Positions 3,062 through 23,158 of a stretch of DNA of 64,000 nucleotides are shown here, piece after piece. Source of the DNA: an uncultured Sphingobacteriales bacterium (GTDB lineage Bacteria; Bacteroidota; Bacteroidia; Chitinophagales; Chitinophagaceae); assembly GCA_937871285.1 (NCBI GenBank), contig CALMQS010000124.1, positions 2,233-66,232 of the forward strand, written 5' to 3'. The first letter of the stretch is position 1. Every line of letters begins with the position of its first letter. A program made the translations under genes and the position numbers. The notes under the pieces are model-generated. The model searched no databases and was not told the origin of the DNA. It saw nothing but the letters and a program-made list of their open reading frames with translations.

Positions 3062-3065
3062 GCTC

Positions 3066-3221: not shown

Positions 3222-3272
3222 ATGAATTATCCTTCGCACAGGTTTCGTTGTTGTTGCCGCCTGGCAACATAA
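3222..3272 (+). CDS. Candidate Cys-rich leader peptide MNYPSHRFRCCCRLAT
   Basis: ATG 4 nt after the -7 box; three consecutive Cys codons (TGT TGT TGC); GTTGCC-GCCT-GGCAAC hairpin covers the Cys codons and ORF end. Confidence 0.55.
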   Translation: MNYPSHRFRCCCRLAT

Positions 3273-4264: not shown

Positions 4265-4269
4265 AAGAC

Positions 4270-5046: not shown

Positions 5047-5192
5047 AAACATGTAAAACATTAAGTCCGGGCGCGTTTTTCTTTGCAGTTGGTTTAATAC
5101 GAATTACGGTTATCGCCCGGCACAACTTCCACACGGGTTAAGGAGCCCGCACAGCGCTGGTTTCCTTAATCCGGATATTTTATCAATCTATT

Positions 5193-5937: not shown

Positions 5938-6789
5938 TCATTTAATATTTCCTGAAAAATCAACAGACTTTCCAATATGAACAGAGCGGCTGTTTACGGA
6001 AACCCTTGGAGCAAAACCTTTGGCTTCTATGACGTATGCAACAAAAGACAGGTTTTCCTTTACATAGCCAGACGGAATGGTGTAAGTAAACGTTTTAGCA
6101 TATACACCGTTTTTTGCGATAGTACCTAATTCATCTCCAAAGTAATTTCCGGTGAGATAGGCCCTGAGCACATGAAAATGCCGGTAATCTTCAATCCATT
6201 TTAAACTTCCGTCAACGAGATCTGCCTGCCTGTAAGGAATATCATTTTCCAGTACTGCAACCGCCAGGCGATAATCGGCGCTCGCTTCTCCCCTATTGGC
6301 AACCTGCACTTCCACCCTAACCGTATTATCTCCCGTAACAGCAGTGCCAAGCGCAATTCCTATCTTAGCCGTTGCTTTTGCCCGCTCTATGAAAGAACCG
6401 GACGTTGCATCAAATTCGCCTACCGTAACCAGGTCATCACGCTGGTCAATGATAACACCGGGATACCCGGTTACACCATAAAAATAGTTTTGAAACTGTT
6501 TATAGCCGCTGAATTCCATAGGATCATTCTCATCCAACCGGCCATGCACACTTATCAGATCAATCCTTCCGGGATATTTTGTTTCAGATGCTGCTGCTAT
6601 AAGGTCAGACACTTTCGGACAGTATACACAATCGAAAGAAACGAACTCCATGATCAGTACATTTTTAGTAAATGATGAAGTGTCGGAACCGCCCTGGTTG
6701 TTATCACCATCCGGGCCGCTTCCTTTTGTACAGGCGTTAATTGCAAGGGCAAAAACACAAAAGGAAAATATTTTAACGATATGCTTCAT
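5938..6789 (-). CDS. Omp28-related outer-membrane lipoprotein with thioredoxin-like CxxC
   Basis: Lipobox INAC; VLIMEFVSFDCVYCP; V.GYP; LENDI...H.HVLRA; start at MKHIV (6789). Confidence 0.85.
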   Translation of the reverse strand: MKHIVKIFSFCVFALAINACTKGSGPDGDNNQGGSDTSSFTKNVLIMEFVSFDCVYCPKVSDLIAAASETKYPGRIDLISVHGRLDENDPMEFSGYKQFQNYFYGVTGYPGVIIDQRDDLVTVGEFDATSGSFIERAKATAKIGIALGTAVTGDNTVRVEVQVANRGEASADYRLAVAVLENDIPYRQADLVDGSLKWIEDYRHFHVLRAYLTGNYFGDELGTIAKNGVYAKTFTYTIPSGYVKENLSFVAYVIEAKGFAPRVSVNSRSVHIGKSVDFSGNIK

Positions 6790-6800
6790 AGTATCAGGAA

Positions 6801-8384: not shown

Positions 8385-8867
8385 TTACAGCCCTTTTAAA
8401 ACTTCCAGTACCTTTGATTCACTGCCCGGGGTATATCCAATATGTGAATAAACAATATTTCCTTTAGGGGTAATAATATATAACTGAGGAATGGAATTGA
8501 CATTCAGGGCCCGCTTAAAATCCTGATTTTTGTCTATTAATACGGTGAATGGCCATTCGCGTGCAGCAGCAAACGTACGAACCCTCGACACAGATCTTGC
8601 ATCATCTGTAGAAACCGCAACTATTTTGAAACTTACTTCTTCCTGCCATGTCGTCCATTGATCTCTAAAGGCATTCAACTCTTCGATGCAAGGCTTACAT
8701 ATTGTTGACCAGAATGATATTACCACCGGCACACCGTCATTAAGCAAAGCGTGTGAATTTATGGTTTCGCCTTTCAACGTATTTAATGGCACAGATGGCA
8801 GTTGTGTTTGACCGGAGACAATTGCAACTGACAGATACGCAAAACAAAACAGGAGATATCTTTTCAT
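8385..8867 (-). CDS. TlpA-family thiol-disulfide oxidoreductase
   Basis: VVISFWSTICKPCIEEL (CxxC), cis-Pro IPQ; signal peptide; stop codon abuts the DUF6029 ATG. Confidence 0.93.
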   Translation of the reverse strand: MKRYLLFCFAYLSVAIVSGQTQLPSVPLNTLKGETINSHALLNDGVPVVISFWSTICKPCIEELNAFRDQWTTWQEEVSFKIVAVSTDDARSVSRVRTFAAAREWPFTVLIDKNQDFKRALNVNSIPQLYIITPKGNIVYSHIGYTPGSESKVLEVLKGL

Positions 8868-9030
8868 TTTAAATTATTCTCAACTTATTTATAATCATAT
8901 ACCAGCTATCATCATCCTGCAAAATTGGAACACGACCTACAGCATTTCTCTTTTTTCATTTACATTTATCGAACACAGAAATTATTGAGCATATACATCT
9001 TCCCATATAATTCGTGGCAGATAATGAATC

Positions 9031-9495
9031 CTAGTGCTCATGTTCATGCTCACCGCTGCCATCTCCGGCTTTAACGGTTATATTTTCATCCAGAGCAGCT
9101 ACCTGGCCTTCCTGATCCGTAACTTTAAGATGGAAACTATAGGCCCCGATAGCCTCTCCTTCGGGAATTACAGGGTAATCCTGAAATCCGGGTACTTCTT
9201 TCCTGCCCACATAATCTCCTTCGTATACCTTGCTAAGGCTAAATATTCCATAGCCACTTTCCTGGTATATCTCCAGCTCAATTTTTTTTATTCGCCCGGG
9301 CACCTTGATATTAACTTCAAAATGTCCTTCCTCGCCTAAATAAAAAATGCCATCTTCCTCCGCCTCATGAATTCCCAGGTGAACCACCTCTATTGTTGGA
9401 GCTGCCGGTTTTTCCTTTTCCTTACTGCATGATGAAAATAAAAGCAGCAATGCCCCCGCAAGCAGTAAATTCCATAATGATTTTTTGTTTTGCAT
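9031..9495 (-). CDS. DUF4625-like lipoprotein with C-terminal HEHEH
   Basis: Lipobox FSSC; IP...IGAYSFHLKVTDQEG motif; His-rich tail. Confidence 0.7.
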   Translation of the reverse strand: MQNKKSLWNLLLAGALLLLFSSCSKEKEKPAAPTIEVVHLGIHEAEEDGIFYLGEEGHFEVNIKVPGRIKKIELEIYQESGYGIFSLSKVYEGDYVGRKEVPGFQDYPVIPEGEAIGAYSFHLKVTDQEGQVAALDENITVKAGDGSGEHEHEH

Positions 9496-9571
9496 GTTAA
9501 AATAATTTGGTGGGATAAATCCCGGTTATCAGCCCAATCATTTATGAGCTTTTCATAGGGGGAAAAAAGCG

Positions 9572-9615
9572 AAAAACATCACCTGCCGGGCAGCGCCGGA
9601 ACAGGTGATATTTTT
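9572..9615 (-). terminator. Intrinsic terminator after susD
   Basis: AAAA(C/T)ATCACCTG ... CAGGTGAT(A/G)TTTTT inverted repeat with T tracts on both strands. Confidence 0.75.
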
Positions 9616-9646
9616 GTGCGCTTAAAACGTTGATGCAAAAGCAATA

Positions 9647-11365
9647 TTAGTATCCCGGGTTCTGGGCAATTCCCAAATCGTTGCCCGACAATCCTTTCGG
9701 AATAGGGAAACGATAGAACTTGCCGCTAATATTTTGTGTTTTTGAACGGAGATGCTTATGCACTTTCGCGAAAAACGGGTAATTTGTTTTAACACTTCCC
9801 GCGGTACCATCACTTTCAGGACCAAACTTAGCAGCAATAGATTCTACAGAACTGTAATCATCCTTGTAGTACTCGAATTCCGGTACATCTGTAAGTATGG
9901 TATTAACCAATTTTCTCCAACGTACCAGGTTAGACCAATGTCTTTGCTCAAAATACAGCTCGAGATACCACTCTTTTTCCAGGTGATCCTGTGTAATTGT
10001 ACTGTATTCACTTACCCCCGCTCTGCGCCTTAATTGATTAATTACCTGTGCTGCTTCAGTTGCTTTACCTAATTGAAGCAGTGCTTCGGCTTTGATCAGC
10101 AAAACTTCGGCATAGCGGATTTCAATGCGGTTCATATTATTGGGCTGGGCCGCTTCTGAACCCGGGGCAACATCCGTGAGTTTTGCATTACGGTGCACAA
10201 ACTTGCCAATACGTGGTGAAGTAACCGGGAATATATAGTCATATTCTTTATAGTCCGTTGCTTTTGTTGCAGGTGATGCAACCGGTTCATCCTGGTTATA
10301 CAATTTTGTGAAAAGTGAATAATGCTTACGTTTATCATTATCCGGGAAACGGTTAACTAATGAAACATCAGCCGGGCCGATATGGTTATCCTGATAAAGA
10401 TCAAAACGGAAAGTGAACGGGCAGTGCGTTTGGTGATTGCCCTGTGCATCACCCAGGCCGTCTCCATCATGATGAATGGTGAAAATATGTTCAGGCGATT
10501 TGTTTTCAGCGGGCACACCGAAATTACTTTCAAAATTATCTTCCAGCCTGTAGTTACCGCTATTGATCACTTTATCGGCATACTCAACGGCTTTCTGCAG
10601 TTTGGCTGCGTCCCAGGCAGCGGCTGCGGGGTCTGACTTACCGCCTGCGATGGCAGCCACTTCAGTTTGTGATAGCGGCTTACTTGCCCATGCCAGGTAT
10701 GCTCTTGCCAAAAGCGCATTGGCAGCGCCTTTGCTTGGGTTAGAACGGATCACATCGTATCCCGGCAAGGCAGCTTCAGCTTCTGTAAAATCTTTTACGA
10801 TTTGTGTGTACACTTCATCAATAGACTTACGGGATGTTTGTTCGGCCGAAGACGGAGTTGAAGTTAATATGAGCGGTACCTCACCCCAAAGATTTACAAG
10901 ATAAGCATAACCCTGTGCACGGATGAATTTTGCCCTCGCTCTTGCCAGGTCTATACTGGACTGGCTCAAATTATTACCGGCACTGCTGGAGTCGGCTTTA
11001 CCTATCGTTCTGTTGGCTTCACCTATACTCACATACAGATAATTGAAGATTTTTGTAGGATACCAGTTATTGACATCTGTCTTTAGCTGGCTCACCAATG
11101 GTCCGTCTGCATCATCAGCACCTTCAAAACTGATTGTATGCTCACTGGTAGATTCCAAAAGAAATGAAAACGAAGAGCTCAATCTTTGCCAGGGCGGGAA
11201 AGCAGCATTGGCTGTTGCCAATGCTTCCTGGTCGGTTTTCCAAACTGATTCTCCTGTAATTACGTCCGGAGGATTTCCTCCTGTTGTATCCTTTTTGCAG
11301 GAGTAGCCTGCCAAAGAACCAACTGCAATAGCTGTAATAGCTAACTGTTTAAGGGATTTTGTCAT
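9647..11365 (-). CDS. SusD/RagB-family lipoprotein (Met/Cys-poor)
   Basis: Lipobox GYSC; WGEVPL; RYAEVLLIKAEA; QNPGY end; only 2 Met and 2 Cys in 572 aa. Confidence 0.95.
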   Translation of the reverse strand: MTKSLKQLAITAIAVGSLAGYSCKKDTTGGNPPDVITGESVWKTDQEALATANAAFPPWQRLSSSFSFLLESTSEHTISFEGADDADGPLVSQLKTDVNNWYPTKIFNYLYVSIGEANRTIGKADSSSAGNNLSQSSIDLARARAKFIRAQGYAYLVNLWGEVPLILTSTPSSAEQTSRKSIDEVYTQIVKDFTEAEAALPGYDVIRSNPSKGAANALLARAYLAWASKPLSQTEVAAIAGGKSDPAAAAWDAAKLQKAVEYADKVINSGNYRLEDNFESNFGVPAENKSPEHIFTIHHDGDGLGDAQGNHQTHCPFTFRFDLYQDNHIGPADVSLVNRFPDNDKRKHYSLFTKLYNQDEPVASPATKATDYKEYDYIFPVTSPRIGKFVHRNAKLTDVAPGSEAAQPNNMNRIEIRYAEVLLIKAEALLQLGKATEAAQVINQLRRRAGVSEYSTITQDHLEKEWYLELYFEQRHWSNLVRWRKLVNTILTDVPEFEYYKDDYSSVESIAAKFGPESDGTAGSVKTNYPFFAKVHKHLRSKTQNISGKFYRFPIPKGLSGNDLGIAQNPGY

Positions 11366-11402
11366 ATTTTCTAATATTTAAGCAATTAATAAATGTATTT
11401 TT

Positions 11403-14400
11403 CTAGTATGAAATATTTACACCAAACAAGAACGTGCGGGGCATCGGATAGGTTCCCAGATCAATACCTGTTGCTACTTCCGGGTTGTAGCCCTTATACC
11501 TTGTAAGGGTTACAGGATTTTGCGCAGTGGCAAATAAACGAACCCGCAATGACGGCAGCTTACGGGAAGCTAACCACGCCTTATCAACAGTGTACCCCAG
11601 CGTTATCGTTCTGATCCGGAGAAAGGAAGCATCTTCCACGTACCGGCTATCCAGCTCCGATGAAAAAGGAGCACTGGTAATCCGCGGTACTGTATTAGAA
11701 GGATTGGCCTCTGTCCATGCGTTCAGCAATGCAGATGAAGCATTATACGCATCATTGGGTCTTTCTAAGTAGCGGCGTAACTGGTTGTATACGCTATTGC
11801 CGCTTGTTCCCTGCAACAAAACAAACAAATCAAAACCGTATGCATTTACCGATGAAGAAAAACCATATATCAGATTTGGCTGTTTACTGCCCAAAACCAC
11901 GCGATCGTTTTGGTCAATATGGCCATCCCTGTTCACATCTCTCAATTTAGGATCTCCGGGTTGCGGTATAGTATAGGATGGACTGGTAGGTAATTTAGAA
12001 ACATCCTCTCCCTTTTGAATTATGCCGTCAAATACCTGTCCGTAAAATGAGCCTAAAGGTTCGCCAACACGCAAAATCTCCACTCCCAGTATTCTCTCCG
12101 TCAGGTTATTGTACAGGCGGGTAATCTTATTTGTATTATGGGCAACATTGGCGGCTACGGACCATTGAATACGTTTCTTATCTATAACCAAAGCATTTAC
12201 CGACAGTTCCACGCCCTTGTTTTCAAGATTACCTACGTTAACTAATTGTTCATTACTCTGCCCGAGATTCGGGGGAATGCGTATGAGCAGGTCTGAAGTT
12301 TTTTTATGATACACATCAACGGTAGCAGAAATCCGGTTATTCAGGAAACCGGCATCTACCCCAATATTATACTGGGCTGTTGTTTCCCATTTCAGGTTTT
12401 CATTTCCGTTGTTGCCTACACTATATGCCACATTACCTCCATAATACACTGCTTCCAAAAGCTGCAGATACTCATAATCACCAATTTCCTGGTTACCTAC
12501 CTGGCCTGCGCTCAACCGTAATTTTAAATTACTGAGCTGTTGGAAATCCTTCAGGAAGGATTCTTCATTGATATTCCATGCCAGGCCTAAAGAAGGAAAT
12601 ATTCCCCATTTGTGATTTTTGGCAAACCTGGTGGAGTAATCACTTCTGAAATTGGCCGTCAGATGATACCTGTCTAACAACGAGTAATTTACTCTTCCCA
12701 ATAATGAATGCAGCCTACTCTGTGTTGCCCCGCTAAAGATCGGCCTGCTGCCATATGGCTTACCATCCTGTAAATTATTCACACCCAGGTCTTCGTTTGT
12801 AAAGCTTGAGCTCAGGGTTGTAATAAAGTTGTTCCTGGTATGCTGAAAAGTATATCCTGCCAGCGCATCAAAAGTGTGCTTATCGTTTATCCGTTTTGCA
12901 TACGACAAAGTAAATTCAGACAAAAGGATCTCGGTCTTTTTATTACCAATACCTCCCACACCCTGCGGTTCAAGTCCGAGAGCCGTATAGGAAGGTGAAA
13001 AATAATGCTGGGTGGTATACCCTAAATTACTGCCAACACTAACTTTTGCAGTAATGCCGCCCTCCGATTTATACTGGGCATACACGTTTCCCAATATAGA
13101 GGAGTATTCGGTTTGCGCCGTACTTTTTAAAAGGTCGGCTATTGGATTTGCGGTAGTATCTCCTTCTCTTAAATACGCGTATTCAAAAGGATTATTGAGG
13201 TTATATCCGCCGCTGGCATTATAAAATGGCAATACCGGCGGCATATACAAAGCGTACGTCAGCGAATTGGTAATACCTGCAGAATAGGGAGAGCTGTTAT
13301 AATTTACAGCTTCAAAAGTAGTGAGCGTATTTTGGGTGCTTTTACTACCTGTGAGGTTTACACCTATTTTCAACCCGGGCAATAAAGTACGATCATAATT
13401 TGCCCGGCCAACAAATCGCTTGAAGCCGGAGTTAAGCACTACACCCTCCTGGTTTAAATAATTACCGGAAAGAAAATACTGCGATTTTTCATCACCGCCG
13501 CTAATGGAAAGCGCATGGTTCTGCGTGGTACCTGTTTGCAACACTGCCTTTTGCCAGTTGTATCCCTGGCCCAGTTGTGCAATCTCCTGGTCGCTATAGC
13601 CGGGTTTGTTAAGGAAATAATCTTTCTGCAAGCGGGCCCATTGTGTTGCATTGAGCAGATCCAGTTGTTTGGCTGAATTGGCTGCTCCAAAAGAATATTG
13701 ATAGTCAATTAAACTTCCGCCTTTCTTACCCTTCCTGGTAGTGATCAGTATAACGCCATTGGATCCGCGTGAACCATAAATAGCCGTTGCCGACACATCC
13801 TTCAGCACCTCGATGGATTCTATATCGGAAGGATTGAGAAAGGAAAGCGGATTAAGCTCACCTTCAATTCCTCCTAAACCAACTTTTGTTGAAGCATTAT
13901 CACTGAAATACAGGAATCCGTCAATTACAAATAAAGGATTATTACTCGCATTTACAGAGTTCCCTCCCCTGATGCGAATGGTTGACGGTGCACCAGGCTG
14001 TCCGGATCCCTGTGTTACGTTTAAGCCCGCTACGGCTCCTCCAAGCAAACCATCAATGGTAGGAGATACATTATATTCTAAAATTTTCTTCGAAACTGAG
14101 GTCACAGCTCCAGTAAGGTCTTTACGCCGCTGTGTACCATATCCTACAACAACCACTTCATTCAATTCATTGATATGCTGAGATAAAGAAATGGTAACAG
14201 GATTATTTACCGAGCGTAATGCTTCTTCACCTGGTTTATAACCAACAGAAGTTATTACCAGCGTTACAGGGAAAGCCTTTACTGACTGAAGTGAAAAAAA
14301 ACCTTTTGTATCACTTAAAACCTTGTTATCGGTTCCTTTTTCACTTATAACTGCACTAATTACCGGTTCATTCGTTTTGCTGTCTATAATATAACCTTCA

Positions 14401-14495
14401 ACAATATGGTTTTGTGCCTGCAGCACTGAAAAACAAAGAAAGAGACCTGTAAATAACCATATTTTTTTTATACACACCCTAAAAAGAAAACTCAT
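11403..14495 (-). CDS. SusC/RagA-family TonB-dependent transporter (Met/Cys-poor)
   Basis: VVVVGYGTQ; LNPSDIESIEVLKDVSATAIYGSRGSNGVILITT; LKWETT; 3 Met, and both Cys in the signal peptide. Confidence 0.97.
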   Translation of the reverse strand: MSFLFRVCIKKIWLFTGLFLCFSVLQAQNHIVEGYIIDSKTNEPVISAVISEKGTDNKVLSDTKGFFSLQSVKAFPVTLVITSVGYKPGEEALRSVNNPVTISLSQHINELNEVVVVGYGTQRRKDLTGAVTSVSKKILEYNVSPTIDGLLGGAVAGLNVTQGSGQPGAPSTIRIRGGNSVNASNNPLFVIDGFLYFSDNASTKVGLGGIEGELNPLSFLNPSDIESIEVLKDVSATAIYGSRGSNGVILITTRKGKKGGSLIDYQYSFGAANSAKQLDLLNATQWARLQKDYFLNKPGYSDQEIAQLGQGYNWQKAVLQTGTTQNHALSISGGDEKSQYFLSGNYLNQEGVVLNSGFKRFVGRANYDRTLLPGLKIGVNLTGSKSTQNTLTTFEAVNYNSSPYSAGITNSLTYALYMPPVLPFYNASGGYNLNNPFEYAYLREGDTTANPIADLLKSTAQTEYSSILGNVYAQYKSEGGITAKVSVGSNLGYTTQHYFSPSYTALGLEPQGVGGIGNKKTEILLSEFTLSYAKRINDKHTFDALAGYTFQHTRNNFITTLSSSFTNEDLGVNNLQDGKPYGSRPIFSGATQSRLHSLLGRVNYSLLDRYHLTANFRSDYSTRFAKNHKWGIFPSLGLAWNINEESFLKDFQQLSNLKLRLSAGQVGNQEIGDYEYLQLLEAVYYGGNVAYSVGNNGNENLKWETTAQYNIGVDAGFLNNRISATVDVYHKKTSDLLIRIPPNLGQSNEQLVNVGNLENKGVELSVNALVIDKKRIQWSVAANVAHNTNKITRLYNNLTERILGVEILRVGEPLGSFYGQVFDGIIQKGEDVSKLPTSPSYTIPQPGDPKLRDVNRDGHIDQNDRVVLGSKQPNLIYGFSSSVNAYGFDLFVLLQGTSGNSVYNQLRRYLERPNDAYNASSALLNAWTEANPSNTVPRITSAPFSSELDSRYVEDASFLRIRTITLGYTVDKAWLASRKLPSLRVRLFATAQNPVTLTRYKGYNPEVATGIDLGTYPMPRTFLFGVNISY

Positions 14496-14631
14496 ATTGC
14501 AGTAGTTAAAAATTTTAATTCAATGTTTTATCAGTGGAACATATTTATCATCAGGCGAAAAAAATCTTTTGAAAAACGGATTGCTATCATTAAATAAACA
14601 GGCGGTAACAACAATTCATTCTACAAATTCT

Positions 14632-14658
14632 ATTAGTCCACAAAATTAGTAGACTATA
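14632..14658. promoter_or_regulatory. Palindromic operator copy in the susC leader
   Basis: ATTAGTCCAC-AAAATTA-GTAGACTATA; no matching -7 box found next to it. Confidence 0.65.
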
Positions 14659-14727
14659 ATTAAATACCAAAATTTTTTTTAACCTCATTACAATAAATTT
14701 TCTGAATCTTTACATAAACCATAACCC

Positions 14728-14805
14728 TTAAGGATTGTCGCCGAAGTAATGAAAATAACTTAAAACATGGTTAGTATTACTACAACGAATTGTAGTAATA
14801 AACAT
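14728..14805 (-). CDS. Candidate leader peptide MFITTIRCSNTNHVLSYFHYFGDNP
   Basis: TIRCS motif resembles TLRCS at 21422-21469; an 11-bp TTCG-loop hairpin (14775-14800) is centred on the Ile-Arg codons and its 3' arm carries the Cys codon. Confidence 0.4.
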   Translation of the reverse strand: MFITTIRCSNTNHVLSYFHYFGDNP

Positions 14806-14863
14806 GATTCAAACGTGATAAAAATCAATTAAACATCATCACTTACGGGGATAAAAGGCATAG

Positions 14864-14938
14864 CTATAAAGCTAAAGTGGACATCAGCCACAAAGGACAT
14901 CGTGACATGGAATAGTCAATATGGTTACTACGCTTCAT
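14864..14938 (-). CDS. Candidate leader peptide MKRSNHIDYSMSRCPLWLMSTLAL
   Basis: ATG 9 nt after the -7 box; contains RC and 3 Met. Confidence 0.35.
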   Translation of the reverse strand: MKRSNHIDYSMSRCPLWLMSTLAL

Positions 14939-14947
14939 AATTAAATG

Positions 14948-14992
14948 CAAAACTATATTATTTATATTAGTCTACAAATATTATAGACTAAT
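14948..14992 (-). promoter_or_regulatory. Sigma70-type promoter (-7 TAGTTTTG at 14948-14955, -33 TTTG at 14975-14978) with operator 14966-14992, driving susCD
   Basis: ATTAGTCTAC-AAATATT-ATAGACTAAT; 19-nt spacer. Confidence 0.78.
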
Positions 14993-15133
14993 TTATTTTT
15001 ATTTTTTTTAAAAGGATACAGGCGTCATTTAAACCAGGAATGTCCAAACAATTGCTTTCCATCGCCTGCATTAGCTATCATACCTGAATATCCGATGACA
15101 GGGCTAAACCAGTATAACAATTAATCCGTTGGT

Positions 15134-17749
15134 TTATAATGTAAATTTTGCGCCCGCATAAACCATCCTGCCAGCTACCGGCCCCCAAACCAAGGAAGCA
15201 TCGAAATATTTACCGAAAGGATTTTCCGCATCAAGGATCAGCATCTTTTGCCTGTAACCGGTTAAATTTTCGCCACCGGTATATATCTCCCATTTTTTAC
15301 CGAATTTCCTGGTTACCTGGGCCATCATTTGAATGAAAGCAGGCGAATAATCACTAAGGCGTAAACCTTCGGGATTTGAAGCCGTATAGGGTATCCGTTT
15401 TCTGCCATACCACTGTGTGGTATAATCGAATTTCCATTTATCTGAAATTTTATACTCAAAATTTATAAAGGCCCTATGCTTAGATATGAGTGGCTTTTCC
15501 TGCAATGCTCCCTGGTAATCCGTTTTTACATCAAGCCACCTGTAAGCGAGCCGCAGATCAAGTTTCTTTAACAGCTCATAATTCAATTCTACCTGGATAT
15601 TGTTTGAATATGATTTTCCATCAAGATTATAGAAGTTTAATTCCCGCGGGGTTGCATCAAAATCAACAACGGTTTGATTGATAAAATCTGTTCTGTACGC
15701 ATCTATACTTACAATACCGGCACGTTCGTACAACCTGAAGGAATGAAGAAAGTTGATGCCCACTGTCCAGGCTTTTTCGGGGTCAAGACCGTAACCAAAA
15801 CTCTGCGTTGGATTTATTACCCGGTATTGTCTTGAGCTTACAAATGCTGCGGTATTCTCCGAAAAAATATTGGCCATTCGGAAACCCGATCCTGCAGAAA
15901 TACGAACGTTGGTTTTTTCTGTAAAATCATATTTTAAGTTAAGTCTTGGAGTGGTAATCCATCCAAAGTAATTGTGATGATCTGCACGTAATCCGGCAAT
16001 TACAGACAGGTTAAATGGTGTGGTATAAGTGTATTCAAAAAAGGCTCCCGGTATTATTTCATTACGGGTGTACAGGAATGTTTCACCTGATGTGCCGGGT
16101 TCCCCATGATCATGCCCGGGTTCACCCGGCTCATCCGTATGACCGGTGTGATCAGCGGTATATATTTCACGATAATTTTCATTGCTGAAGCTTACCCCCG
16201 TTCTGTATTTGTGTGCGGTTGTGCCAATGATGGACTGATAAATAAAGTTGGCATAAATGTTTTTCTGATTACCTGTATAGGTATTTATTCCATATACAGA
16301 TTCATTATTGTAAATGTTGCCGGAAAAAACGAATCCTATGCTTTTATATTTATGCTGCGGGAACACATAACCCAGTTTCCCGGTTATGGCGTATTGTTCC
16401 GTATTCATATCCACGTTGTAGTGATCGCCGGGTACATCAGCACTGTGATGCGAACCGCGCTGTCCTGCATATCTTTTATCGTTCAGCGCTTTTACAGCAA
16501 ACTGACCAACCCATCCTTCATTATTCATATACTTCCACCGGTTAATAATATTGAACTGCCGTCCTCCAGGCATATCAACAAACCCATCATGATTTCCATC
16601 ATGCCTCCATACAACAGCGTCGGTATGGCTCAACAGCGCAGTGCTCCATTTGTCATTTAACCTTTGTGTAAAATTAATATTGCCTTCAACCCGCCCCATA
16701 CTGTTAACATAACTATTTACCAGTAAGCGCCCGGCATCGTCTGGTTTTTTCTCTTCAACATTTATTTGTCCTGCAATGCTTTCATAACCATTTACCACGG
16801 AGCCCACTCCCTTGGTTATTTGTATGCTTTCAATCCAGGGACCAGGGATAAAGGTAAGCCCATAGCTACCCGGAAGACCTTTTAATTCCGGTACATTTTC
16901 GGTAAGTAACTGGGTATAAATGCCCGACAGTCCCAGTAATTGTATTTGCTTTATGCCGGTAACCGCATCTGAATAGCTTACGTCAACGGAAGGGCTGGTT
17001 TCAAAACTTTCAGAGAGGTTACAGCAGGCTGCTTTTGATAATTCAGCAGCGCCAAGGTTTACAGTATTATACACATTACGCAATGTTAGGTAGGCAGGCG
17101 CTTTTCTTGATGTTATTGTTACGCCCTTCAGGTTAACGGATGCCGCATTCTTTAATGTAAGCGTAATGAAATCTGTATTTGTTATGGTTATGGTATCCGG
17201 TGTCAATTCCGTGTAGCTTATAATTACAGGTGCAGGAACTGTAGATTGAAATTGAAACACACCGGTGCTGTCGGTAATAAAGCGCTCCCCCGAATGAAGA
17301 TTCTTTACGGTAGCGCCTGCTACCGGATAAATTTTTCCTTTAACTGTTTCTTCAAGTATTACGCCAGATATGCTATGTAATATATGCTTTGGATCAGCTT
17401 TGTTTGTTCTCTGGTAATGACAGCATGAAGGCAGTGTTTTATATACTTCCTCAGACGCTTTAAACAATTCATTATCATGTCCCGCCTCCGCAATTTTTTG
17501 CTGAATGAGGATTTTAGATGTTACCGTGCTGTCAAATTCAACCAGGAGTTGATTTGTTTTACTATTCCATGTAGCACGGGCGGTAGATTTGAGCCCCAGC
17601 GCCGACTGCTCTATCCGTTCCTTACACATTTCGCAATTACCTGATACCCGGAAAGTTTCAGTAATTACATTATGAGTCTGGGCAACAGATCCCAAACTGA
17701 AAAGCATACATGTAATGCCTGTATATATATATTTATTATTTCGTATCAT
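15134..17749 (-). CDS. TonB-dependent receptor with N-terminal heavy-metal-associated (HMA) domain
   Basis: VSGNCEMCKERIE HMA motif; LPSCCHY; KAACCNLSESFETSPSVDVSYSDAVTG plug; internal His-rich loop. Confidence 0.9.
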   Translation of the reverse strand: MIRNNKYIYTGITCMLFSLGSVAQTHNVITETFRVSGNCEMCKERIEQSALGLKSTARATWNSKTNQLLVEFDSTVTSKILIQQKIAEAGHDNELFKASEEVYKTLPSCCHYQRTNKADPKHILHSISGVILEETVKGKIYPVAGATVKNLHSGERFITDSTGVFQFQSTVPAPVIISYTELTPDTITITNTDFITLTLKNAASVNLKGVTITSRKAPAYLTLRNVYNTVNLGAAELSKAACCNLSESFETSPSVDVSYSDAVTGIKQIQLLGLSGIYTQLLTENVPELKGLPGSYGLTFIPGPWIESIQITKGVGSVVNGYESIAGQINVEEKKPDDAGRLLVNSYVNSMGRVEGNINFTQRLNDKWSTALLSHTDAVVWRHDGNHDGFVDMPGGRQFNIINRWKYMNNEGWVGQFAVKALNDKRYAGQRGSHHSADVPGDHYNVDMNTEQYAITGKLGYVFPQHKYKSIGFVFSGNIYNNESVYGINTYTGNQKNIYANFIYQSIIGTTAHKYRTGVSFSNENYREIYTADHTGHTDEPGEPGHDHGEPGTSGETFLYTRNEIIPGAFFEYTYTTPFNLSVIAGLRADHHNYFGWITTPRLNLKYDFTEKTNVRISAGSGFRMANIFSENTAAFVSSRQYRVINPTQSFGYGLDPEKAWTVGINFLHSFRLYERAGIVSIDAYRTDFINQTVVDFDATPRELNFYNLDGKSYSNNIQVELNYELLKKLDLRLAYRWLDVKTDYQGALQEKPLISKHRAFINFEYKISDKWKFDYTTQWYGRKRIPYTASNPEGLRLSDYSPAFIQMMAQVTRKFGKKWEIYTGGENLTGYRQKMLILDAENPFGKYFDASLVWGPVAGRMVYAGAKFTL

Positions 17750-17857
17750 AACTTAACGGATCTATTCTTATCATTAATAAAGTGGCTTACCGTGGGTGCA
17801 TTTCAAATTGTTGCCGGTTGGTGTAGACACCAACCGGGGCGGTCCACAGGAAGCAAG

Positions 17858-19078
17858 TCAAAGCGGTTTTATTATCTTATAAAAAACCTTTTCCTCATCA
17901 TCCGGTTGTTTTTTACCGGAGAAAGCCACTATAAACTGGTTGCCAAACGGCTTTATTACAGGAAAAGACGCGTAACCGGTGCTGTCTGTTAAATACGTTG
18001 TTAGCATTTTTTTCCCGCACGGAGACCTGATTTCGAGGCCTATGCGATTGCCTTTTGATGCGCTTTCATCCCATACGATCAATTGTTCACCTGCTTTGGC
18101 AACTGCTAACTGGGGGTGTTTGGCGGAAGGCCTGCTACTCACAGCATCTCTTTTTGAAAACGTTTTACCATTGTCTTTTGAAGCTGCATAAAAAACACCA
18201 CTGCCATTTCCCGAAGTATACCAAACAAAAGAAAGACCTTCGGGTGTTTGTGCTATGGCAGGCCCAGTGTGCGGGCAGCCATTGATCACCCAATTATCAG
18301 GACTGATACGTTCAGGCGGCGCGAAGGTATTTCCGTTATCAAAAGAAACGGCATGAACCATATCTCTTATTGAATCATTAATTATTTTCCTGTAAACGGC
18401 ATGCAGGTTTCCCTGCTGATCAGCAAACAGGTCTGTACGGCAGCAGGGGCAAACGGAAATGTCAACAGGCTTTTCATTTTCCAGTTCGCTATTGCTGTCA
18501 AAAGTTGCAAAGTACAGGGTTGAGCCTTCCTTGTCTGTGCTCTTCCGGCTATCGAGCCAGATTACTCCTACCGTGTTATCCTTTAATATTTCTATATCAA
18601 AATAGCGTTGATCAACACTGTTTGTATCCTTACTTAATGTTTTGCGGGTTGTCCAGTTCTTACCCCCGTCTAATGACCAGCTATAATAAACAAGTCCCGA
18701 ATAAGGATTTTCAGGATTGGGATTTGACGCTCCCCAGGCGGCCAAAATTTTTCCGTTTGGAGCTATGATTACCCTGGGTAAATTTTCACCGTGCGGATAT
18801 GCATTATCACTGCCGGGTACCGTTATTGCTGAGCCGAAGTGAGTTCCATTTTCAGATACCGCATAACACAATACAGATGCCGTATCTGAGATATCACGCA
18901 ACCAGCTTATAACCGTTATTCCATCCTTTCCTTTAAACAGGTTGGGGCAGGATCCTGAAAAAGCGCTATCCTTCGCAATTCCCCATTCGTCTGTTGCAAC
19001 CTGCTTCAACTTTTGCTCCCTGGAGTTACAGGATAAGAGAAAAATGAGCAGAAGGCTATACACCGTAAATTTCATCAT
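17858..19078 (-). CDS. BNR/Asp-box (sialidase-like) beta-propeller lipoprotein
   Basis: Lipobox LLSC; Asp boxes SLDGGKNW, SFDNGNTF, SKDNGKTF; VCPCC and GCPHTGP motifs; ATGA overlap with the upstream TBDR. Confidence 0.82.
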   Translation of the reverse strand: MMKFTVYSLLLIFLLSCNSREQKLKQVATDEWGIAKDSAFSGSCPNLFKGKDGITVISWLRDISDTASVLCYAVSENGTHFGSAITVPGSDNAYPHGENLPRVIIAPNGKILAAWGASNPNPENPYSGLVYYSWSLDGGKNWTTRKTLSKDTNSVDQRYFDIEILKDNTVGVIWLDSRKSTDKEGSTLYFATFDSNSELENEKPVDISVCPCCRTDLFADQQGNLHAVYRKIINDSIRDMVHAVSFDNGNTFAPPERISPDNWVINGCPHTGPAIAQTPEGLSFVWYTSGNGSGVFYAASKDNGKTFSKRDAVSSRPSAKHPQLAVAKAGEQLIVWDESASKGNRIGLEIRSPCGKKMLTTYLTDSTGYASFPVIKPFGNQFIVAFSGKKQPDDEEKVFYKIIKPL

Positions 19079-21369
19079 TGATTGCTTTTGTTGATCTTCC
19101 ATGCAATACCAGCATTAATTGTTCTGAGCTGACCGGGGCGATATGTGGTTCCCCACGAACTTTTTTCTACCGTAGTAGCATATACAGCATCTCCTACGTT
19201 CAAACAGTTTACCCAAACCTCTACCGATTTAAACTGGTACCCTGTTCTGGCGTTAAAAATGTTAAAGCCTTTATATTTTGCGGTATTTTCCGGGTCGGTA
19301 TGATAGCCTCCCATGCCCTGCCACTCAAATGAAATTCTAAAGCCTTTAAAAAAATGTGGCTTGTAACTAACCTCACTGTTGATAAAATACGGAGGAGCCT
19401 GGCTCATGTGATGACCCGAAAGATTTTTATCGTTTCTCACATAATCTTTATATTCATGGTGAGCAATGGTTCCGCCGGCTCTTAGTGTTAACCCTTTCAC
19501 CACTTCATAACGGGCATTTGCCTCCATACCATAATGTGTTGTTTCCCCTACATTTTGGTTTTTGTAAGTTCCATCCACCTGTCTCACACTCATTATCTCA
19601 TTTTTACCATCCATTTTATAAAGCGCGATATCTGCATTTCCTCTTCCCTCATTAAAGCCTGACCAGCCTCCTATCTCATAGTTGTTATAAGTTGAGGGCT
19701 TAAGGGTAGGCACCTGTACGCCTGTAAATAAGTCTGTGATATTGGGTGGTGCAAAGCCTACGCTATAATTAGCGTATAAACCTTTGGTATTTGTAAAGCC
19801 ATACGTAAATCCAACTTTGGGAGTGAAATACGAAAAATAATTAGAAGCGTCTGCAGCTCCTGAATAAGATCCGGGCGGAAGCAGGTTCCTGAAATCGTAA
19901 TCCATTCTGTCGTACCGCGCCGCTACAAGCACCTTAAGCTTTTCTACAGGGTTAATTTCAAATTGCGTATAAACGGCGGAATTAAAGAGATCAACTTTAT
20001 AATTGGTAAGCACAGAATCGGTAGTTGTATATGCATAGTATACCTTGTCTGCATTAACATCTATATCAATGTAGTTTGCATAGTAAGTAGCGGGGCTGAA
20101 ATCCACGCTAACACCCGTGATCCACCTTGCATTAAGGAAGTTGAAATTTTTTCTGTGCTGGGCAATGACGCCATAGCTGCTAAATGCGTCTTCATTAATT
20201 TGTCCCTTAGCTTTAGCAGGGTTGCCGGGTACAGCCCCAATACTGTAAAAAGGGTTTTGACCTATTGCCGTATTCCGGTGAAACAGTGTTATGGTTGTTT
20301 TATTATGCTCATTCCAGGTATGCTCAAACGCTGCTTTCAGCCTAAAAGCATTTACTTTCCGGTAAGTGAACCTGTAAAAGCTTTCATAGTCTTTACCGTA
20401 AAATTTGGTACTGTCTAACCCGCCCACCTGGTCTGTTTTATAGTTGATATAATCCGCCGTAAAATTCAACAGGCTTTTTTCGTCAAAGTGATAGTCGGCA
20501 CGGAATGTTAACGCAAGCTTTCTGAAATCATTATGTTGCCTGTCATCCTCATTTCTATCCGCAAAATAACCTCCTGCATATAATCCTAACTTTTTAAAAG
20601 AATTAGAAGCAAAAAAATCGGTTCTTTTATACCCGCGGCTGCCCGCTTCAATTTGAATTTTACCGGAAGGGGCCTGGGAGGGAGCAGGTGTAATAAAATT
20701 AACAGCGCCGCCAACAGCCTCACTTCCATATAATGAAGAAGCCGGCCCCTTAATTACTTCTACCCGCTCTACTGCTGCCTGGTTTATTTCGATCAACGCG
20801 TTGTGGTTAAAGTCGCCAACGGTACGGATAGGAACACCATCTTCCAGGTACAGGTACATATTGCTGTATCCCATAGGCTGGCGTATAGACATGGCATGTT
20901 GTTCGTTGCCCAGATCAACCATAAACACGCCAGGTACCTTGTTCAGCAACAAATCAAGACGTGTAGCCTTGGTGTCATTAATCGTAGTTTTTGAAATAGT
21001 GTGTATAGCAATAGGAGCTTCTGACCGGGGTTGCAGCTCTCTGTTCGCTGATACAATTACTTCTGCAAGCTGCGTGCCTTCAGGCTGAAGAAATACCTGG
21101 ATAAGTTTATCTGAAACGGGAAGTTTCTGATACTTATAATTTACGGCTGAAATAATGATGCTGTCAATCCGGGCAGCCGGTTCAAGTACAAATAATCCGG
21201 ACTTATTGGTTTTTGTAAATATTTTTTTGTTGGCAGATGATATGCTCACATCCGGAACAGGAAGCCTGCTTTCTTTATCAAACACATATCCGCTAATGCG
21301 GCTCTGCGACTGAGCCTCAGTTCCAATAGTTGCCAAAAGAACGAATGAAATGAATAACCTCAATGACAT
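19075..21369 (-). CDS. TonB-dependent receptor
   Basis: CarboxypepD-like N-domain; ERVEVIKGPASSLYGSEAVGGAVNFIT plug motif. Confidence 0.93.
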   Translation of the reverse strand: MSLRLFISFVLLATIGTEAQSQSRISGYVFDKESRLPVPDVSISSANKKIFTKTNKSGLFVLEPAARIDSIIISAVNYKYQKLPVSDKLIQVFLQPEGTQLAEVIVSANRELQPRSEAPIAIHTISKTTINDTKATRLDLLLNKVPGVFMVDLGNEQHAMSIRQPMGYSNMYLYLEDGVPIRTVGDFNHNALIEINQAAVERVEVIKGPASSLYGSEAVGGAVNFITPAPSQAPSGKIQIEAGSRGYKRTDFFASNSFKKLGLYAGGYFADRNEDDRQHNDFRKLALTFRADYHFDEKSLLNFTADYINYKTDQVGGLDSTKFYGKDYESFYRFTYRKVNAFRLKAAFEHTWNEHNKTTITLFHRNTAIGQNPFYSIGAVPGNPAKAKGQINEDAFSSYGVIAQHRKNFNFLNARWITGVSVDFSPATYYANYIDIDVNADKVYYAYTTTDSVLTNYKVDLFNSAVYTQFEINPVEKLKVLVAARYDRMDYDFRNLLPPGSYSGAADASNYFSYFTPKVGFTYGFTNTKGLYANYSVGFAPPNITDLFTGVQVPTLKPSTYNNYEIGGWSGFNEGRGNADIALYKMDGKNEIMSVRQVDGTYKNQNVGETTHYGMEANARYEVVKGLTLRAGGTIAHHEYKDYVRNDKNLSGHHMSQAPPYFINSEVSYKPHFFKGFRISFEWQGMGGYHTDPENTAKYKGFNIFNARTGYQFKSVEVWVNCLNVGDAVYATTVEKSSWGTTYRPGQLRTINAGIAWKINKSNQ

Positions 21370-21421
21370 GGGATCTAAAATTGTTAGTTTGGAAAACAGT
21401 TGCTGGTATAACAGGGTTTTG

Positions 21422-21469
21422 TTATTTCTGTGGAGTACTACATCGAAGTGTGTTCAGCATTTTTTTCAT
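21422..21469 (-). CDS. Candidate leader peptide MKKMLNTLRCSTPQK
   Basis: Lies between the operator-promoter and the TBDR; A-rich start context; TLRCS motif. Confidence 0.4.
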   Translation of the reverse strand: MKKMLNTLRCSTPQK

Positions 21470-21504: not shown

Positions 21505-21549
21505 CAAAACTAATATCAATTTATTAGTCTACCAAATAAGTAGACTAAT
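21505..21549 (-). promoter_or_regulatory. Sigma70-type promoter (-7 TAGTTTTG at 21505-21512, -33 TTTG at 21533-21536) with perfect operator 21523-21549
   Basis: ATTAGTCTAC-CAAATAA-GTAGACTAAT; 20-nt spacer. Confidence 0.8.
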
Positions 21550-21645
21550 AAATTATTTTAATTTTTTCTTTTGCTGCAGGCGCGATGCTCCTGCCCTGTT
21601 TTTTTGATTTTATGATCAGCGTCAATAAATATTTACTCAAAAAAA

Positions 21646-21678: not shown

Positions 21679-21711
21679 CTGCAGTTCTTTACACCGTATG
21701 ATTTACGGAAT

Positions 21712-21829
21712 ACTTATCAAGAAAGGTGGAGGGTAATGGCCCTGCGAAGCCTTGACAACCTCCTTTTATGCCGCATGGAATAAAAGGGAAGGTGCCAATT
21801 CCATCACGCCAACGGCGTGGGAGATAAGC
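21712..21829 (+). ncRNA. SAM-I (S-box) riboswitch
   Basis: CTTATCAAGAAAGGTGGAGGG...GGCCC...GAAGCC...CAACC...GGTGCCAATTCC...GAGATAAG; P1 CTTATC/GATAAG; P4 CACGCC/GGCGTG. Confidence 0.95.
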
Positions 21830-21867
21830 CAGATTCATAGCTCCGCAATATGTGTAACACAATATTT

Positions 21868-21900
21868 GAAGCTCGTCTGATTTATCGGACGAGCTTTTTT
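21868..21900 (+). terminator. Riboswitch expression-platform terminator
   Basis: AAGCTCGTCTGA-TTTA-TCGGACGAGCTT followed by a T run. Confidence 0.85.
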
Positions 21901-21970
21901 GTTGCTCCCCGGTATGCTTTTTTGATAAGTGTTCTTTACCCAATTAATTCACATTTTAAATCAAAAAAAG

Positions 21971-23158
21971 ATGAGCAACAACGCAACAAGCCTTATTCAC
22001 AGCATTCCCGTTGATCCTTTAACCGGAGCTATTGCCGTACCCATTTACCAAACCAGCACATTTATCCAGGAAGCCCCCGGTATAAATAAGGGTTATGATT
22101 ATGCCCGCACCGGCAATCCTACCAGGCAGGCGCTCGAAAACCTTATTGCCACGCTGGAAAAAGGAACCACAGGCATTGCTTTTGCCAGCGGACTGGCAGC
22201 TATTGACGCGGTAGTAAAATTATTGGAAAGCGGCGATGAAATACTGGCGGTGGATGACATCTATGGCGGCGCATTCCGCCTGTTCACACACATTTACGGG
22301 AAATTCGGCGTCACTGTAAACTACGTTGATACAACGCGGGCCGAAAATGTTTTTAACGCCATTACTCCCAAAACCAGGCTGATATGGATTGAAACACCTA
22401 CCAATCCTACGTTAAAAATTTCCGATATCCGGGCCGTGGCTGCCATTGCAAAGGCCAGCGGGTGTTTGCTGTGCGTAGACAATACCTTTGCATCACCGGC
22501 GCTTCAGCAGCCACTTGAGCTGGGTGCAGATATTGTCGTTCATTCTGCTACCAAATATCTTGGCGGCCACAGCGACCTGATAGCCGGTCTTGTGATCACC
22601 AAAACAAAAGAGTTAGGCGAAAAAATAAAATTCATTCAAAACGCGAGTGGCGCCATTTTGGCTCCGTTCGATAGCTGGCTGGTGATACGCGGCATTGAAA
22701 CTTTACACCTGCGCGTAAAGCAACATTGTTTTAATGCCCAGGCTGTAGCAGCATTTCTACAATCACATCCCGATGTTGACCAAGTTTATTACCCGGGATT
22801 AAAATCGCATTTCAATCATGCCATTGCGGCTCAGCAATCAAAGGGTTTTGGCGGTGTTGTTTCTTTTACCCTCAAAGATGATACAGAAGAAGCCGCCACT
22901 GCATTTGTTACTTCCACCCAATATTTTAAGCTGGCAGAAAGCCTGGGCGGTGTAAAAAGCCTGTTGTGCCATCCCGCACAAATGACCCACCTGTCTATTC
23001 CGGCAGAAAAGAGGAAAGCCGCCGGCGTTGCAGACAGCCTCATCAGGCTAAGCGTGGGATTAGAAGATGCCGGTGACCTGATCAGTGATCTGCAGCAGGC
23101 GTTTGAAAAAATTAAAACCAGGCAGCATTCAGTAAAAAAGCCGGTGGCTCACATATAG
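21971..23158 (+). CDS. metB: Cystathionine gamma-synthase/lyase (Cys/Met metabolism PLP enzyme)
   Basis: YDYARTGNPTR, FASGLAA, ETPTNP, VDNTFASP, HSATKYLGGHSD, LAESLGG; downstream of a SAM riboswitch; MetB versus MetC/CGL not resolvable by eye. Confidence 0.85.
   Translation: MSNNATSLIHSIPVDPLTGAIAVPIYQTSTFIQEAPGINKGYDYARTGNPTRQALENLIATLEKGTTGIAFASGLAAIDAVVKLLESGDEILAVDDIYGGAFRLFTHIYGKFGVTVNYVDTTRAENVFNAITPKTRLIWIETPTNPTLKISDIRAVAAIAKASGCLLCVDNTFASPALQQPLELGADIVVHSATKYLGGHSDLIAGLVITKTKELGEKIKFIQNASGAILAPFDSWLVIRGIETLHLRVKQHCFNAQAVAAFLQSHPDVDQVYYPGLKSHFNHAIAAQQSKGFGGVVSFTLKDDTEEAATAFVTSTQYFKLAESLGGVKSLLCHPAQMTHLSIPAEKRKAAGVADSLIRLSVGLEDAGDLISDLQQAFEKIKTRQHSVKKPVAHI

Follow-up and report, generated by a model that had tools for sequence, protein, structure and literature searches.

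The DNA examined here (the window) is a stretch of 64,000 nucleotides (nt) from a metagenome-assembled genome of an uncultured Sphingobacteriales bacterium from activated sludge, and its genes, among them SusC/SusD, those for TonB-dependent receptors and a PhyH-SDR-DUF6134 operon, are of the kind usual in Chitinophagaceae. Three strings of genes in it, which begin with a PhyH-family dioxygenase, a SusC-like protein and a TonB-dependent receptor, are preceded by copies of a palindromic operator, and short open reading frames (ORFs) lie between the promoters and the first long genes (Table 1). The initial annotation of this stretch drew attention to four of these leader ORFs, all of which encode Arg-Cys (RC), and took them for a family of Cys-sensing peptides or for an RNA motif read by a common factor. 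Our comparison across genomes suggests that what recurs is a minigene of Cys codons, to which Arg is often adjacent, and that it belongs to a sulfur/cysteine regulon, not described before, that includes control of tRNA-Cys; the mechanism beyond this sequence anatomy is one that we infer.

The operator, TAGTCTAC-N7-GTAGACTA, occurs at five sites in the window, against 0.09 expected. A -7 box of the Bacteroidota type (TAnnTTTG) stands 11–12 nt downstream of the sites at 3176, 14968 and 21525 and of the reverse-facing site at 3086, and the same operator-to-box spacing is repeated in ~40 loci of other genomes. These motifs show the palindromic operator, TTAGTCTAC-N7-GTAGACTAA, to overlap the predicted promoter in two registers. 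In one, the -7 box lies 11–12 nt downstream and the TTTG of the operator spacer falls at the place expected of a -33 element; in the other, the spacer together with the next G is itself the -7 box, an arrangement also seen at SusC orthologs (L110:1218, L112:1310 and L113:1308). The operator presumably binds a putative sulfur-responsive repressor. No recurring DNA-binding gene was found near the operators in the operator loci, and there is no regulator candidate within the window; two Crp/Fnr-like genes, recognized by sequence inspection in L002 and L044, were set aside as the regulator since they have no counterparts in other loci.

All of the leader ORFs lie on the sense strand between the -7 box and the first long gene, with transcript starts placed according to the promoter motifs. 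The four ORFs of the initial annotation and their translations match the sequence exactly, each downstream of a palindromic site, with RC at codons 9–10 (3222-3272), 13–14 (14864-14938), 7–8 (14728-14805) and 9–10 (21422-21469), that is, near codons 7–14 as had been reported, and with T[IL]RCS common to two of the four. The shared nucleotide pattern that had been described, TTCGWTGTWGT, occurs three times in the 64 kb, always in these leaders, against 0.06 expected, a count that is circular because the pattern was derived from the same sites. RC is present in 4/8 leader ORFs of the window (sense strand; binomial p = 7e-4, post hoc), against 45/768 (5.9%) of all ATG ORFs of 10–40 codons in the window and 3/105 of the intergenic ones outside leaders, in keeping with the earlier view that chance is an unlikely source. 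A fifth ORF, 14590-14619, is absent from the earlier list and is, after 3222-3272, the other clear member in the window: the Cys codons stand in a row in it (CC) as they do in 3222-3272 (CCC), and both contain TGTTGTTRCCGCCTG, at 3249-3263 in the leader of phyH. With only 4 nt between the -7 box and its ATG, 3222-3272 is probably leaderless, as probably are the ORFs of L091 and L114, where the distance is the same; in other loci the start codon lies 9–110 nt after the box.

Table 1 Features of the window, with their coordinates, and leader ORFs of loci in other genomes. Peptides are written up to the stop codon; an ellipsis marks residues that are not given.
Feature	Position	Strand	Details
PhyH operon	3359-5795	+	PhyH-family iron/2-oxoglutarate (Fe/2OG) dioxygenase 3359-4264, SDR 4270-5046, DUF6134 5193-5795
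SusC gene string	5938-14495	-	SusC-like 11403-14495, SusD-like 9647-11365, DUF4625, thioredoxin-like, DUF6029, Omp28
Receptor gene string	15134-21369	-	TonB-dependent receptor 19075-21369, BNR-repeat protein 17858-19102, second TonB-dependent receptor 15134-17749
tRNA-Cys(GCA)	2579-2650	-	same strand as the weak operator at 3086 and 436 nt behind it
Operator	3176-3198		perfect palindrome; -7 box TATATTTG at 3210-3217(+)
Operator, weaker	3086-3108		2 mismatches, faces the other way; -7 box TACTTTTG at 3066-3073(-)
Operator op1	14968-14990		1 mismatch; -7 box TAGTTTTG at 14948-14955(-)
Operator op2	14634-14656		1 mismatch; spacer and next G are TAATTTTG, 14641-14648(-)
Operator	21525-21547		perfect palindrome; -7 box TAGTTTTG at 21505-21512(-)
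Leader ORF MNYPSHRFRCCCRLAT	3222-3272	+	
Leader ORF MKRSNHIDYSMSRCPLWLMSTLAL	14864-14938	-	single Cys; starts 9 nt after the -7 box
ORF MFITTIRCSNTNHVLSYFHYFGDNP	14728-14805	-	single Cys
Leader ORF MKKMLNTLRCSTPQK	21422-21469	-	single Cys; sole ATG ORF of its 135-nt leader
Leader ORF MNCCYRLFI	14590-14619	-	followed by three consecutive stop codons; directly behind operator 14634-14656
L068 leader ORF			MCCCCC
L072 leader ORF			MCCCC
L085 leader ORF			...AGCCCCY
L094 leader ORF			...ICGCCCC
L091 leader ORF			MKEFSKKPACCCCRQAML; counterpart of 3222-3272
L042/L083 leader ORF			MRCC
L080 leader ORF			MRCCCNC
L065 leader ORF			...LQCCCR
L114 leader ORF			(GTG)KFIKSHIMYCCCRQATY; PhyH locus, counterpart of 3222-3272
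L116 leader ORF			...HICRCCCR; PhyH locus, counterpart of 3222-3272
L113 leader ORF			(GTG)KRCCCC; SusC ortholog
L112 leader ORF			MNRCYQHITCSGCKTKSCRSLSSAC (MNRCYQH...SSAC); SusC ortholog
L110 leader ORF			MYSYNQRMFCFNCNPQCCKNFFSVC (...PQCCKNFFSVC); SusC ortholog
L111 leader ORFs			...HCCS and ...ERC; SusC ortholog

As an independent test, one genome per species was scanned for the exact operator, which gave 99 loci, nearly all of them from Chitinophagaceae (Puia, Niabella, Terrimonas, Chitinophaga, Agriterribacter and Flavitalea) together with Chryseobacterium. Leader statistics were taken over 33 non-redundant operator leaders of at least 90 nt, with 1000 dinucleotide shuffles and the reverse complements as controls. 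The enrichment of RC behind operator matches, which the initial annotation had proposed to look for genome-wide, was found in other genomes: an ATG ORF with RC is present in 10/33 leaders, against a shuffle mean of 1.84 and 3 in the reverse complements, and none of the 1000 shuffles reached 10. The density of RC is 1.32 per kb in leaders and 0.32 per kb in the remaining intergenic DNA of the same loci, a fourfold difference, and half of the excess is RCC (5/33 leaders against 0.06 expected). Counted directly, CGW-TGY-stop shows no enrichment close to operators, with 17 occurrences near and 75 far when 16.5% of the sequence is taken as near. Consecutive Cys codons gave a more pronounced result. 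ATG ORFs with CC occur in 14/33 leaders, where the shuffles predict 1.2 (0/1000 reach 14) and the reverse complements have 1, the rate of CC in the remaining intergenic DNA is one tenth of that in leaders, and CCC is found in 7/33 leaders against 0.06 expected; when the 20 amino-acid doublets were compared, Cys alone stood out (z 12.4, with the runner-up at z 3.7). An in-frame ATG accompanies 14 of the 22 TGY runs, and in 13 of these 14 a stop codon follows within 5 codons. Arg precedes the Cys run in 7/22 non-redundant runs, compared with 9.1% in control intergenic ORFs (3.5-fold; p ~0.003–0.004, or ~0.009 without the window's own case), and by inspection R or K follows the run in nine more cases. 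The codons used are CGA, CGT, CGC and AGA for Arg and TGT and TGC for Cys. RC is thus real but secondary, and the stronger signal is that of Cys-codon runs (CC to CCCCC) close to the stop of short leader ORFs.

Individual leaders illustrate how little else is constrained. Their products range from 3 to 36 residues (e.g. MRC, MRCC and MCCCC), with the ending RCCCRLAT of 3222-3272 as the example from the window, and the ORFs of L068 and L072 differ by a TGT>TGC change and by exactly one whole codon. For the PhyH operon, five more orthologs were picked after the hypothesis had been formed, and 4/5 of these have ORFs with CC to CCCC, including two from Cytophagales (Larkinella and Siphonobacter). 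The PhyH leader of Terrimonas encodes MYCCCRQATY and has an in-frame GTG located 4 nt after the -7 box, that of Chitinophaga niabensis ends in GACCCCKC, that of Larkinella in HICRCCCR and that of Siphonobacter (L117) in SSLCCK; no operator of standard spacing was found at the latter two. Upstream of the Siphonobacter leader (L117, ~930-970), half-sites TAGTCTAT and GTAGACTA stand 16 nt apart, not 7, and may represent a form of the operator peculiar to Cytophagales. The fifth locus, from Puia, has no leader, as only 12 nt separate its operator from the PhyH gene. Altogether a polycysteine ORF is present in 10/12 PhyH-ortholog loci, and the PhyH-SDR-DUF6134 synteny is also found in L114-L117.

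The SusC orthologs, at 76–83% identity, keep one operator with a Cys-rich ORF behind it, whereas the remaining leader diverges; one of them, L109, has no leader. These orthologs have op2 only, and the op1 module of the window (14657-14990), which contains two of the four ORFs annotated initially, is without a counterpart in them. A metagenome scan for relatives of the 764-aa receptor returned 8 loci, 3 of them above 75% identity, and two of these three lie in a different gene context without the operator. The 84%-identical ortholog in L102 has an unrelated leader, with an ORF ending in SKMRC; the leader ORF of L101, MKRSFLIYNENRC, shares its first 12 nt with 14864-14938 and ends in NRC; and L103 has no such leader ORF. 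When the window leaders were compared with all 117 loci by blastn, only the Cys-run segment matched, and 14728-14805 found no counterpart. The comparison of orthologous leaders, another check put forward at the outset, therefore shows a Cys-codon ORF that is kept while the sequence around it diverges. What recurs from genus to genus, and in two orders, is by this comparison the run of Cys codons in a short leader ORF alone.

Contigs of related strains (~90–97% identity) were aligned to the three window leaders. In the phyH ORF the changes at Asn2 and Arg9 (CGT>CGC) are synonymous, the residues after the Cys run vary non-synonymously, and no indels fall inside the ORF against eight in the flanks. 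Behind op2, strain X4 has a new stop directly after the Cys codons, which leaves MNCC, and strains X2 and X4 have lost the first two of the three consecutive stops, which gives MNCCYRLFIEW. In three related strains 21422-21469 has a single change, which is synonymous (Thr12), against six changes or indels in 107-nt flanks; in strain X2 there is one synonymous change in 14728-14805 and none in 14864-14938. These variants, small in number, are what would be expected if selection acted on a short core of codons (start, Arg or Asn, Cys) rather than on a motif of nucleotides.

The genes behind the operator point to sulfur. Met makes up ~0.8% of the proteins of the three operator-controlled strings, compared with ~2.3% in the remaining window: the 1030 aa of SusC include only 2 Cys and 2 Met and the 572 aa of SusD only 2 Cys and 1 Met, and PhyH is free of Cys, with 3 Met, whereas two other SusC-like proteins of the window have 15–18 Met. 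A low content of Cys and Met is a classical signature of proteins induced by sulfur starvation. Elsewhere, the genes found directly behind the operator include those for TonB-dependent receptors (11 promoter sites) and PhyH (7), O-acetylhomoserine sulfhydrylase-type enzymes are encoded within 13 operator loci, and the targets in Chryseobacterium include a TauE/SafE sulfite exporter, an SrpI-like type 2A encapsulin and a NIL-domain protein; thioredoxin-like proteins and peroxiredoxins are also among the operator targets. Compared with solved structures, the PhyH protein of the window has only a distant match to an Fe/2OG dioxygenase, MysH (E 3e-4). Among the tRNA genes in 100 operator loci, 33/36 are tRNA-Cys(GCA), and in 24 loci tRNA-Cys lies 35–250 nt downstream of the operator on the same strand (e.g. 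L012:5688-5821 and L098:3726-3916). Judged by this gene content, the palindromic operator is the mark of a sulfur/cysteine regulon, tRNA-Cys included.

It is uncommon for a tRNA gene to stand behind an operator of the metabolite type. In Puia-type genomes, a conserved ORF of ~20–27 codons lies between the promoter and tRNA-Cys; its product is hydrophobic and then basic (MLLLLLVKLIYEIRGRRLAARRR...) and has no Cys, and its amino-acid sequence is conserved in at least seven genomes (L011, L020, L059, L061, L070, L087 and L098).

We consider it fairly probable that the short ORFs are cysteine-sensing leader peptides of a sulfur-starvation regulon with two layers of control, one exerted at the operator and the other through ribosome pausing. 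In the first layer, a sulfur-responsive repressor would bind the operator where it overlaps the promoter, either at the -33 position or around the -7 box. In the second, very short ORFs would open the transcripts, and all that is conserved in them is a set of one to five Cys codons, usually 0–5 codons before the stop and frequently with Arg or Lys at their side. A shortage of Cys-tRNA(Cys) would make a ribosome pause at these codons, and the transporter or dioxygenase genes downstream would be expressed more strongly; with an ample supply, the ribosome would complete the ORF and leave, and the leader would attenuate expression. The proposal of Cys-sensing peptides made in the initial annotation thus gains support from the other genomes, but the feature that defines the family appears to be the Cys run by the stop, with Arg in a secondary part.

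How a pause would be passed on is suggested by what lies behind the ORFs. The distance from ORF to gene is 50–300 nt (77–86 nt in the six PhyH loci of the operator set and 88–150 nt in the prospective set), and the spacers are pyrimidine-rich and G-poor, with more C than G in 15/18. A terminator scan found no terminator-like site in the three window leaders (T-runs in the receptor leaders were rejected as terminators, as they adjoin the second operator and resemble promoter flanks), and in single-sequence folds of window leaders (n = 4) none was significantly better than shuffles (z -1.9 to +1.1). RNAalifold gave zero consensus pairs for six PhyH spacers, no conserved pairing that would mask the downstream start region was found in six PhyH leaders, and Rfam 15 returned no family for the leaders, even at E up to 1; over the whole window only a SAM (S-adenosylmethionine) riboswitch and the tRNA pass. 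Because no terminator, antiterminator or conserved fold was found behind the ORFs and the spacer is pyrimidine-rich and G-poor, we favor a structure-independent route, and a classical hairpin switch is less likely. Spacers with more C than G, together with Cys codons beside the stop, would make for a tnaC-like arrangement in which Rho is denied access. We conjecture that a ribosome paused beside the stop codon blocks Rho loading in this way or else keeps the leader occupied.

The leader ORFs of the window do not qualify equally as Cys sensors. It is very likely that 3222-3272 is one, and 14590-14619 is likely to be another. For 21422-21469 the chances appear even; it is plausible because its leader has no other ORF, related strains keep it and the leader of the orthologous receptor has an ORF ending in MRC. 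For 14864-14938 the chances are somewhat below even, the role being possible because of its counterpart in L101. The three single-Cys ORFs inside the span 14728-21469 are the weakest members, and among them 14728-14805 is unlikely to be a sensor and doubtful as a coding element. A perfect 10-bp hairpin with a UUCG loop lies at 14776-14799, the TIRCS codons of 14728-14805 form its loop and 3' arm, and the nucleotides that this ORF has in common with other leaders are explained by the perfect hairpin alone.

Several points weigh against cysteine-sensing leader peptides. The three ORFs within that span have one Cys each, and single-Cys RC, with the window excluded, is not significantly enriched (~5/33 leaders against ~2 expected). 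L029, L103 and several further long leaders are without a Cys ORF, and strain X2 carries Cys11>Tyr inside the CCC run of the phyH ORF. No conserved secondary structure or intrinsic terminator that could transmit a pause was found in the leaders examined, and many leaders are predicted to form hairpins in which the Cys codons are paired, so that a contribution at the RNA level is possible. The sole basis for the Rho idea is the excess of C over G in the spacers, which may be a general trait of 5' untranslated regions in Bacteroidota. The sulfur-scavenging role ascribed to the transporters and the PhyH enzyme is read from their neighbors, and the single metatranscriptome of the source sample, which is tiny, contains none of the sequence.

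The alternative that survives best, although we think it somewhat unlikely, is that the three single-Cys ORFs in 14728-21469 are chance ORFs of AT-rich leaders and that the true sensors are only 3222-3272 and 14590-14619. The single-Cys figures just given fit this alternative, the window itself suggested the hypothesis, the hairpin accounts for 14728-14805, and the op1 module lacks a counterpart in SusC orthologs. Yet leader ORFs of orthologous receptors end in NRC (L101), MRC (L102) and ERC (L111), Arg is overrepresented before Cys runs relative to controls, 21422-21469 has undergone one synonymous change against six in its flanks, and RC in half of the leader ORFs of the window exceeds the background severalfold.

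It is very unlikely that the leaders carry an RNA element in which U/G-rich runs (UGUUGUUGC, UUCGWUGU) serve as protein-binding sites or helix arms and the reading frames are incidental. There is pairing that such an element could use: the Cys codons and stop region of 3222-3272 form a hairpin, GUUGCC-GCCU-GGCAAC, with GUUGCC/GGCAAC also in L091 and L114; the Cys codons in L085, L065 and L026 pair with upstream segments of the ACAACAAC type; TGTTGTTGCCGCCWG is conserved at the nucleotide level in four PhyH leaders and appears again at 14599-14613; and the motif of 14728-14805 is a perfect hairpin. However, TTCGWTGTWGT is limited to the window and missing from leaders elsewhere, and no consensus structure, covariation or Rfam match was found, so that the shared RNA motif with a common factor proposed in the initial annotation is not supported. 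In addition, TGT and TGC interchange, Arg appears in four codons and close strains alter codons synonymously; an in-frame ATG and a nearby stop accompany the runs in the Cys frame only; and L068 and L072 differ by a whole codon, while the reverse strand is without signal. Least probable of all is that the small ORFs encode functional Cys-rich peptides (e.g. metal- or redox-active) made together with the transporters, since, consistent though it is with the Cys content and with a regulon that has thioredoxin-like proteins, peroxiredoxins and one receptor (15134-17749) with a weak, sub-threshold match to the HMA domain, the products go down to three residues, only Cys and a flanking basic residue are conserved at widely differing lengths, and Cys-rich products would be wasteful in a regulon whose other proteins are so poor in Cys and Met.

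A bolder version of the cysteine-sensing leader, which we regard as quite unlikely, is a self-referential circuit in Chitinophagaceae in which one operator controls both tRNA-Cys, and with it the amount of the molecule through which the ribosome senses, and scavenging operons that are gated by Arg-Cys(n)-stop minigenes with no RNA switch. In place of a switch, the ribosome paused beside the stop would block Rho or keep the leader occupied.

Other features lie near the operators. The weak operator at 3086-3108 and its -7 box lead into a structured unit of ~130 nt (2933-3073, minus strand). In it, GAGCATG...CATGCTC forms a hairpin, another segment (GTGGTTCGAATCCAC) looks like the T-arm of a tRNA, and the end is a strong hairpin, terminator-like, at 2933-2964(-). 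This unit has no Rfam match and no homolog in the fetched loci, and it may be a small RNA of the regulon. Between it and tRNA-Cys lies a 64-codon ORF (MSKQKNTDGFRYGEEEDYAWLPHEKK..., 2705-2899, minus strand) with a hydrophobic middle, no Cys and no Pfam family. Divergent from the operator at 21525, the SAM riboswitch (21711-21830(+), 78.6 bits) and a terminator (21868-21897(+)) precede the gene for a pyridoxal phosphate-dependent enzyme of Cys/Met metabolism (21929-23158(+)); a gene of this type in Niabella (L068:3860) stands behind the operator and also has a leader that, judged by eye, resembles a riboswitch. Between the operator at 21525 and the promoter of the SAM riboswitch, GCAGG...CCTGC forms a GC-rich hairpin with T7 behind it (21575-21606(+)), which is terminator-like but has no obvious transcript to end.

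Little is established about sulfur and cysteine sensing in Bacteroidota. If cysteine-sensing leaders operate as we propose, cysteine-codon attenuation would reach from mycobacteria to an unrelated phylum with different rules of translation initiation, control by an operator and by the ribosome would be combined on the same operons, and the operator together with the Cys minigene would be a signature for sulfur-scavenging transporters and enzymes in soil and wastewater bacteria. Were the self-referential circuit to exist, it would be a new design of attenuation in a phylum without initiation led by Shine-Dalgarno pairing, and the first case of a regulon whose transcription factor adjusts the tRNA that its own leader peptides read. 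Culturable carriers are Chitinophaga niabensis (CP154260, L115), Terrimonas (e.g. T. ginsenosidimutans NA20, L003), Larkinella (e.g. L. harenae, L116) and Siphonobacter.

The arrangement can be set beside several known systems. In trpL, hisL, pheL, thrL and leuL of Proteobacteria, the leader peptide has its regulatory codons, those for the sensed amino acid, grouped towards the C terminus, and the Cys codons here are similarly clustered near the end of a short ORF upstream of the regulated operon. Unlike in those systems, neither a U-run terminator hairpin nor an alternative antiterminator was found behind the ORFs, and the genes are for uptake or catabolism and not for biosynthesis of the sensed amino acid. 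TnaC, of the tna operon of E. coli, senses free tryptophan via the nascent peptide and not through tRNA charging, and attenuation there is Rho-dependent. The leaders studied here resemble tnaC in having the sensing position beside the stop of a short leader ORF, followed by an unstructured, C-rich and G-poor spacer, but differ from it in that sensing would proceed through tRNA charging, with the role of Rho a conjecture.

Sulfur regulons under a dedicated factor include those of CysB in enterobacteria, CymR in Bacillus and CysR, with srpI, in Synechococcus. As in these regulons, a single operator appears here to serve genes of sulfur assimilation and scavenging, including one for an SrpI-like encapsulin, and the proteins are poor in Cys and Met. 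To our knowledge, a tRNA-Cys gene is part of the regulon in none of the CysB, CymR and CysR systems. Unlike theirs, the operator sequence here was not found in the literature searched, where we also found nothing relevant on sulfur regulons of Bacteroidota and, in open publications, no description of Cys leader peptides in this phylum.

The closest likeness is to mycobacteria, in which leaderless polycysteine short ORFs attenuate cysteine operons, as established by mutation and proteomics (the 'Cys ribulon'; Canestrari et al., bioRxiv 10.1101/834739). In both cases the ORFs are very short, have at least two consecutive Cys codons and stand at the 5' end of operons linked, here through the regulon as a whole, to cysteine or sulfur, several independent loci occur per genome, and the sequence beyond the Cys run is not conserved; starts that are probably leaderless are found here in at least three loci (3222 in the window, L091 and L114). 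The differences are equally clear. The mycobacterial mechanism, in which a downstream Shine-Dalgarno sequence is unmasked, cannot carry over as such because the carriers here are Bacteroidota, which do not rely on Shine-Dalgarno pairing. A transcription-factor operator is present, whereas the mycobacterial work stresses control without a transcription factor (bioRxiv 10.1101/834739), and the targets are TonB-dependent transporters and a PhyH dioxygenase and not cysteine biosynthesis. The Cys run usually abuts the stop, Arg or Lys flanks are frequent and some members have a single Cys; and attenuation, demonstrated by experiment in mycobacteria, is here read from sequence alone. Cysteine-codon leader control, shown so far only in mycobacteria, looks to be present also in Bacteroidota of soil and sludge.

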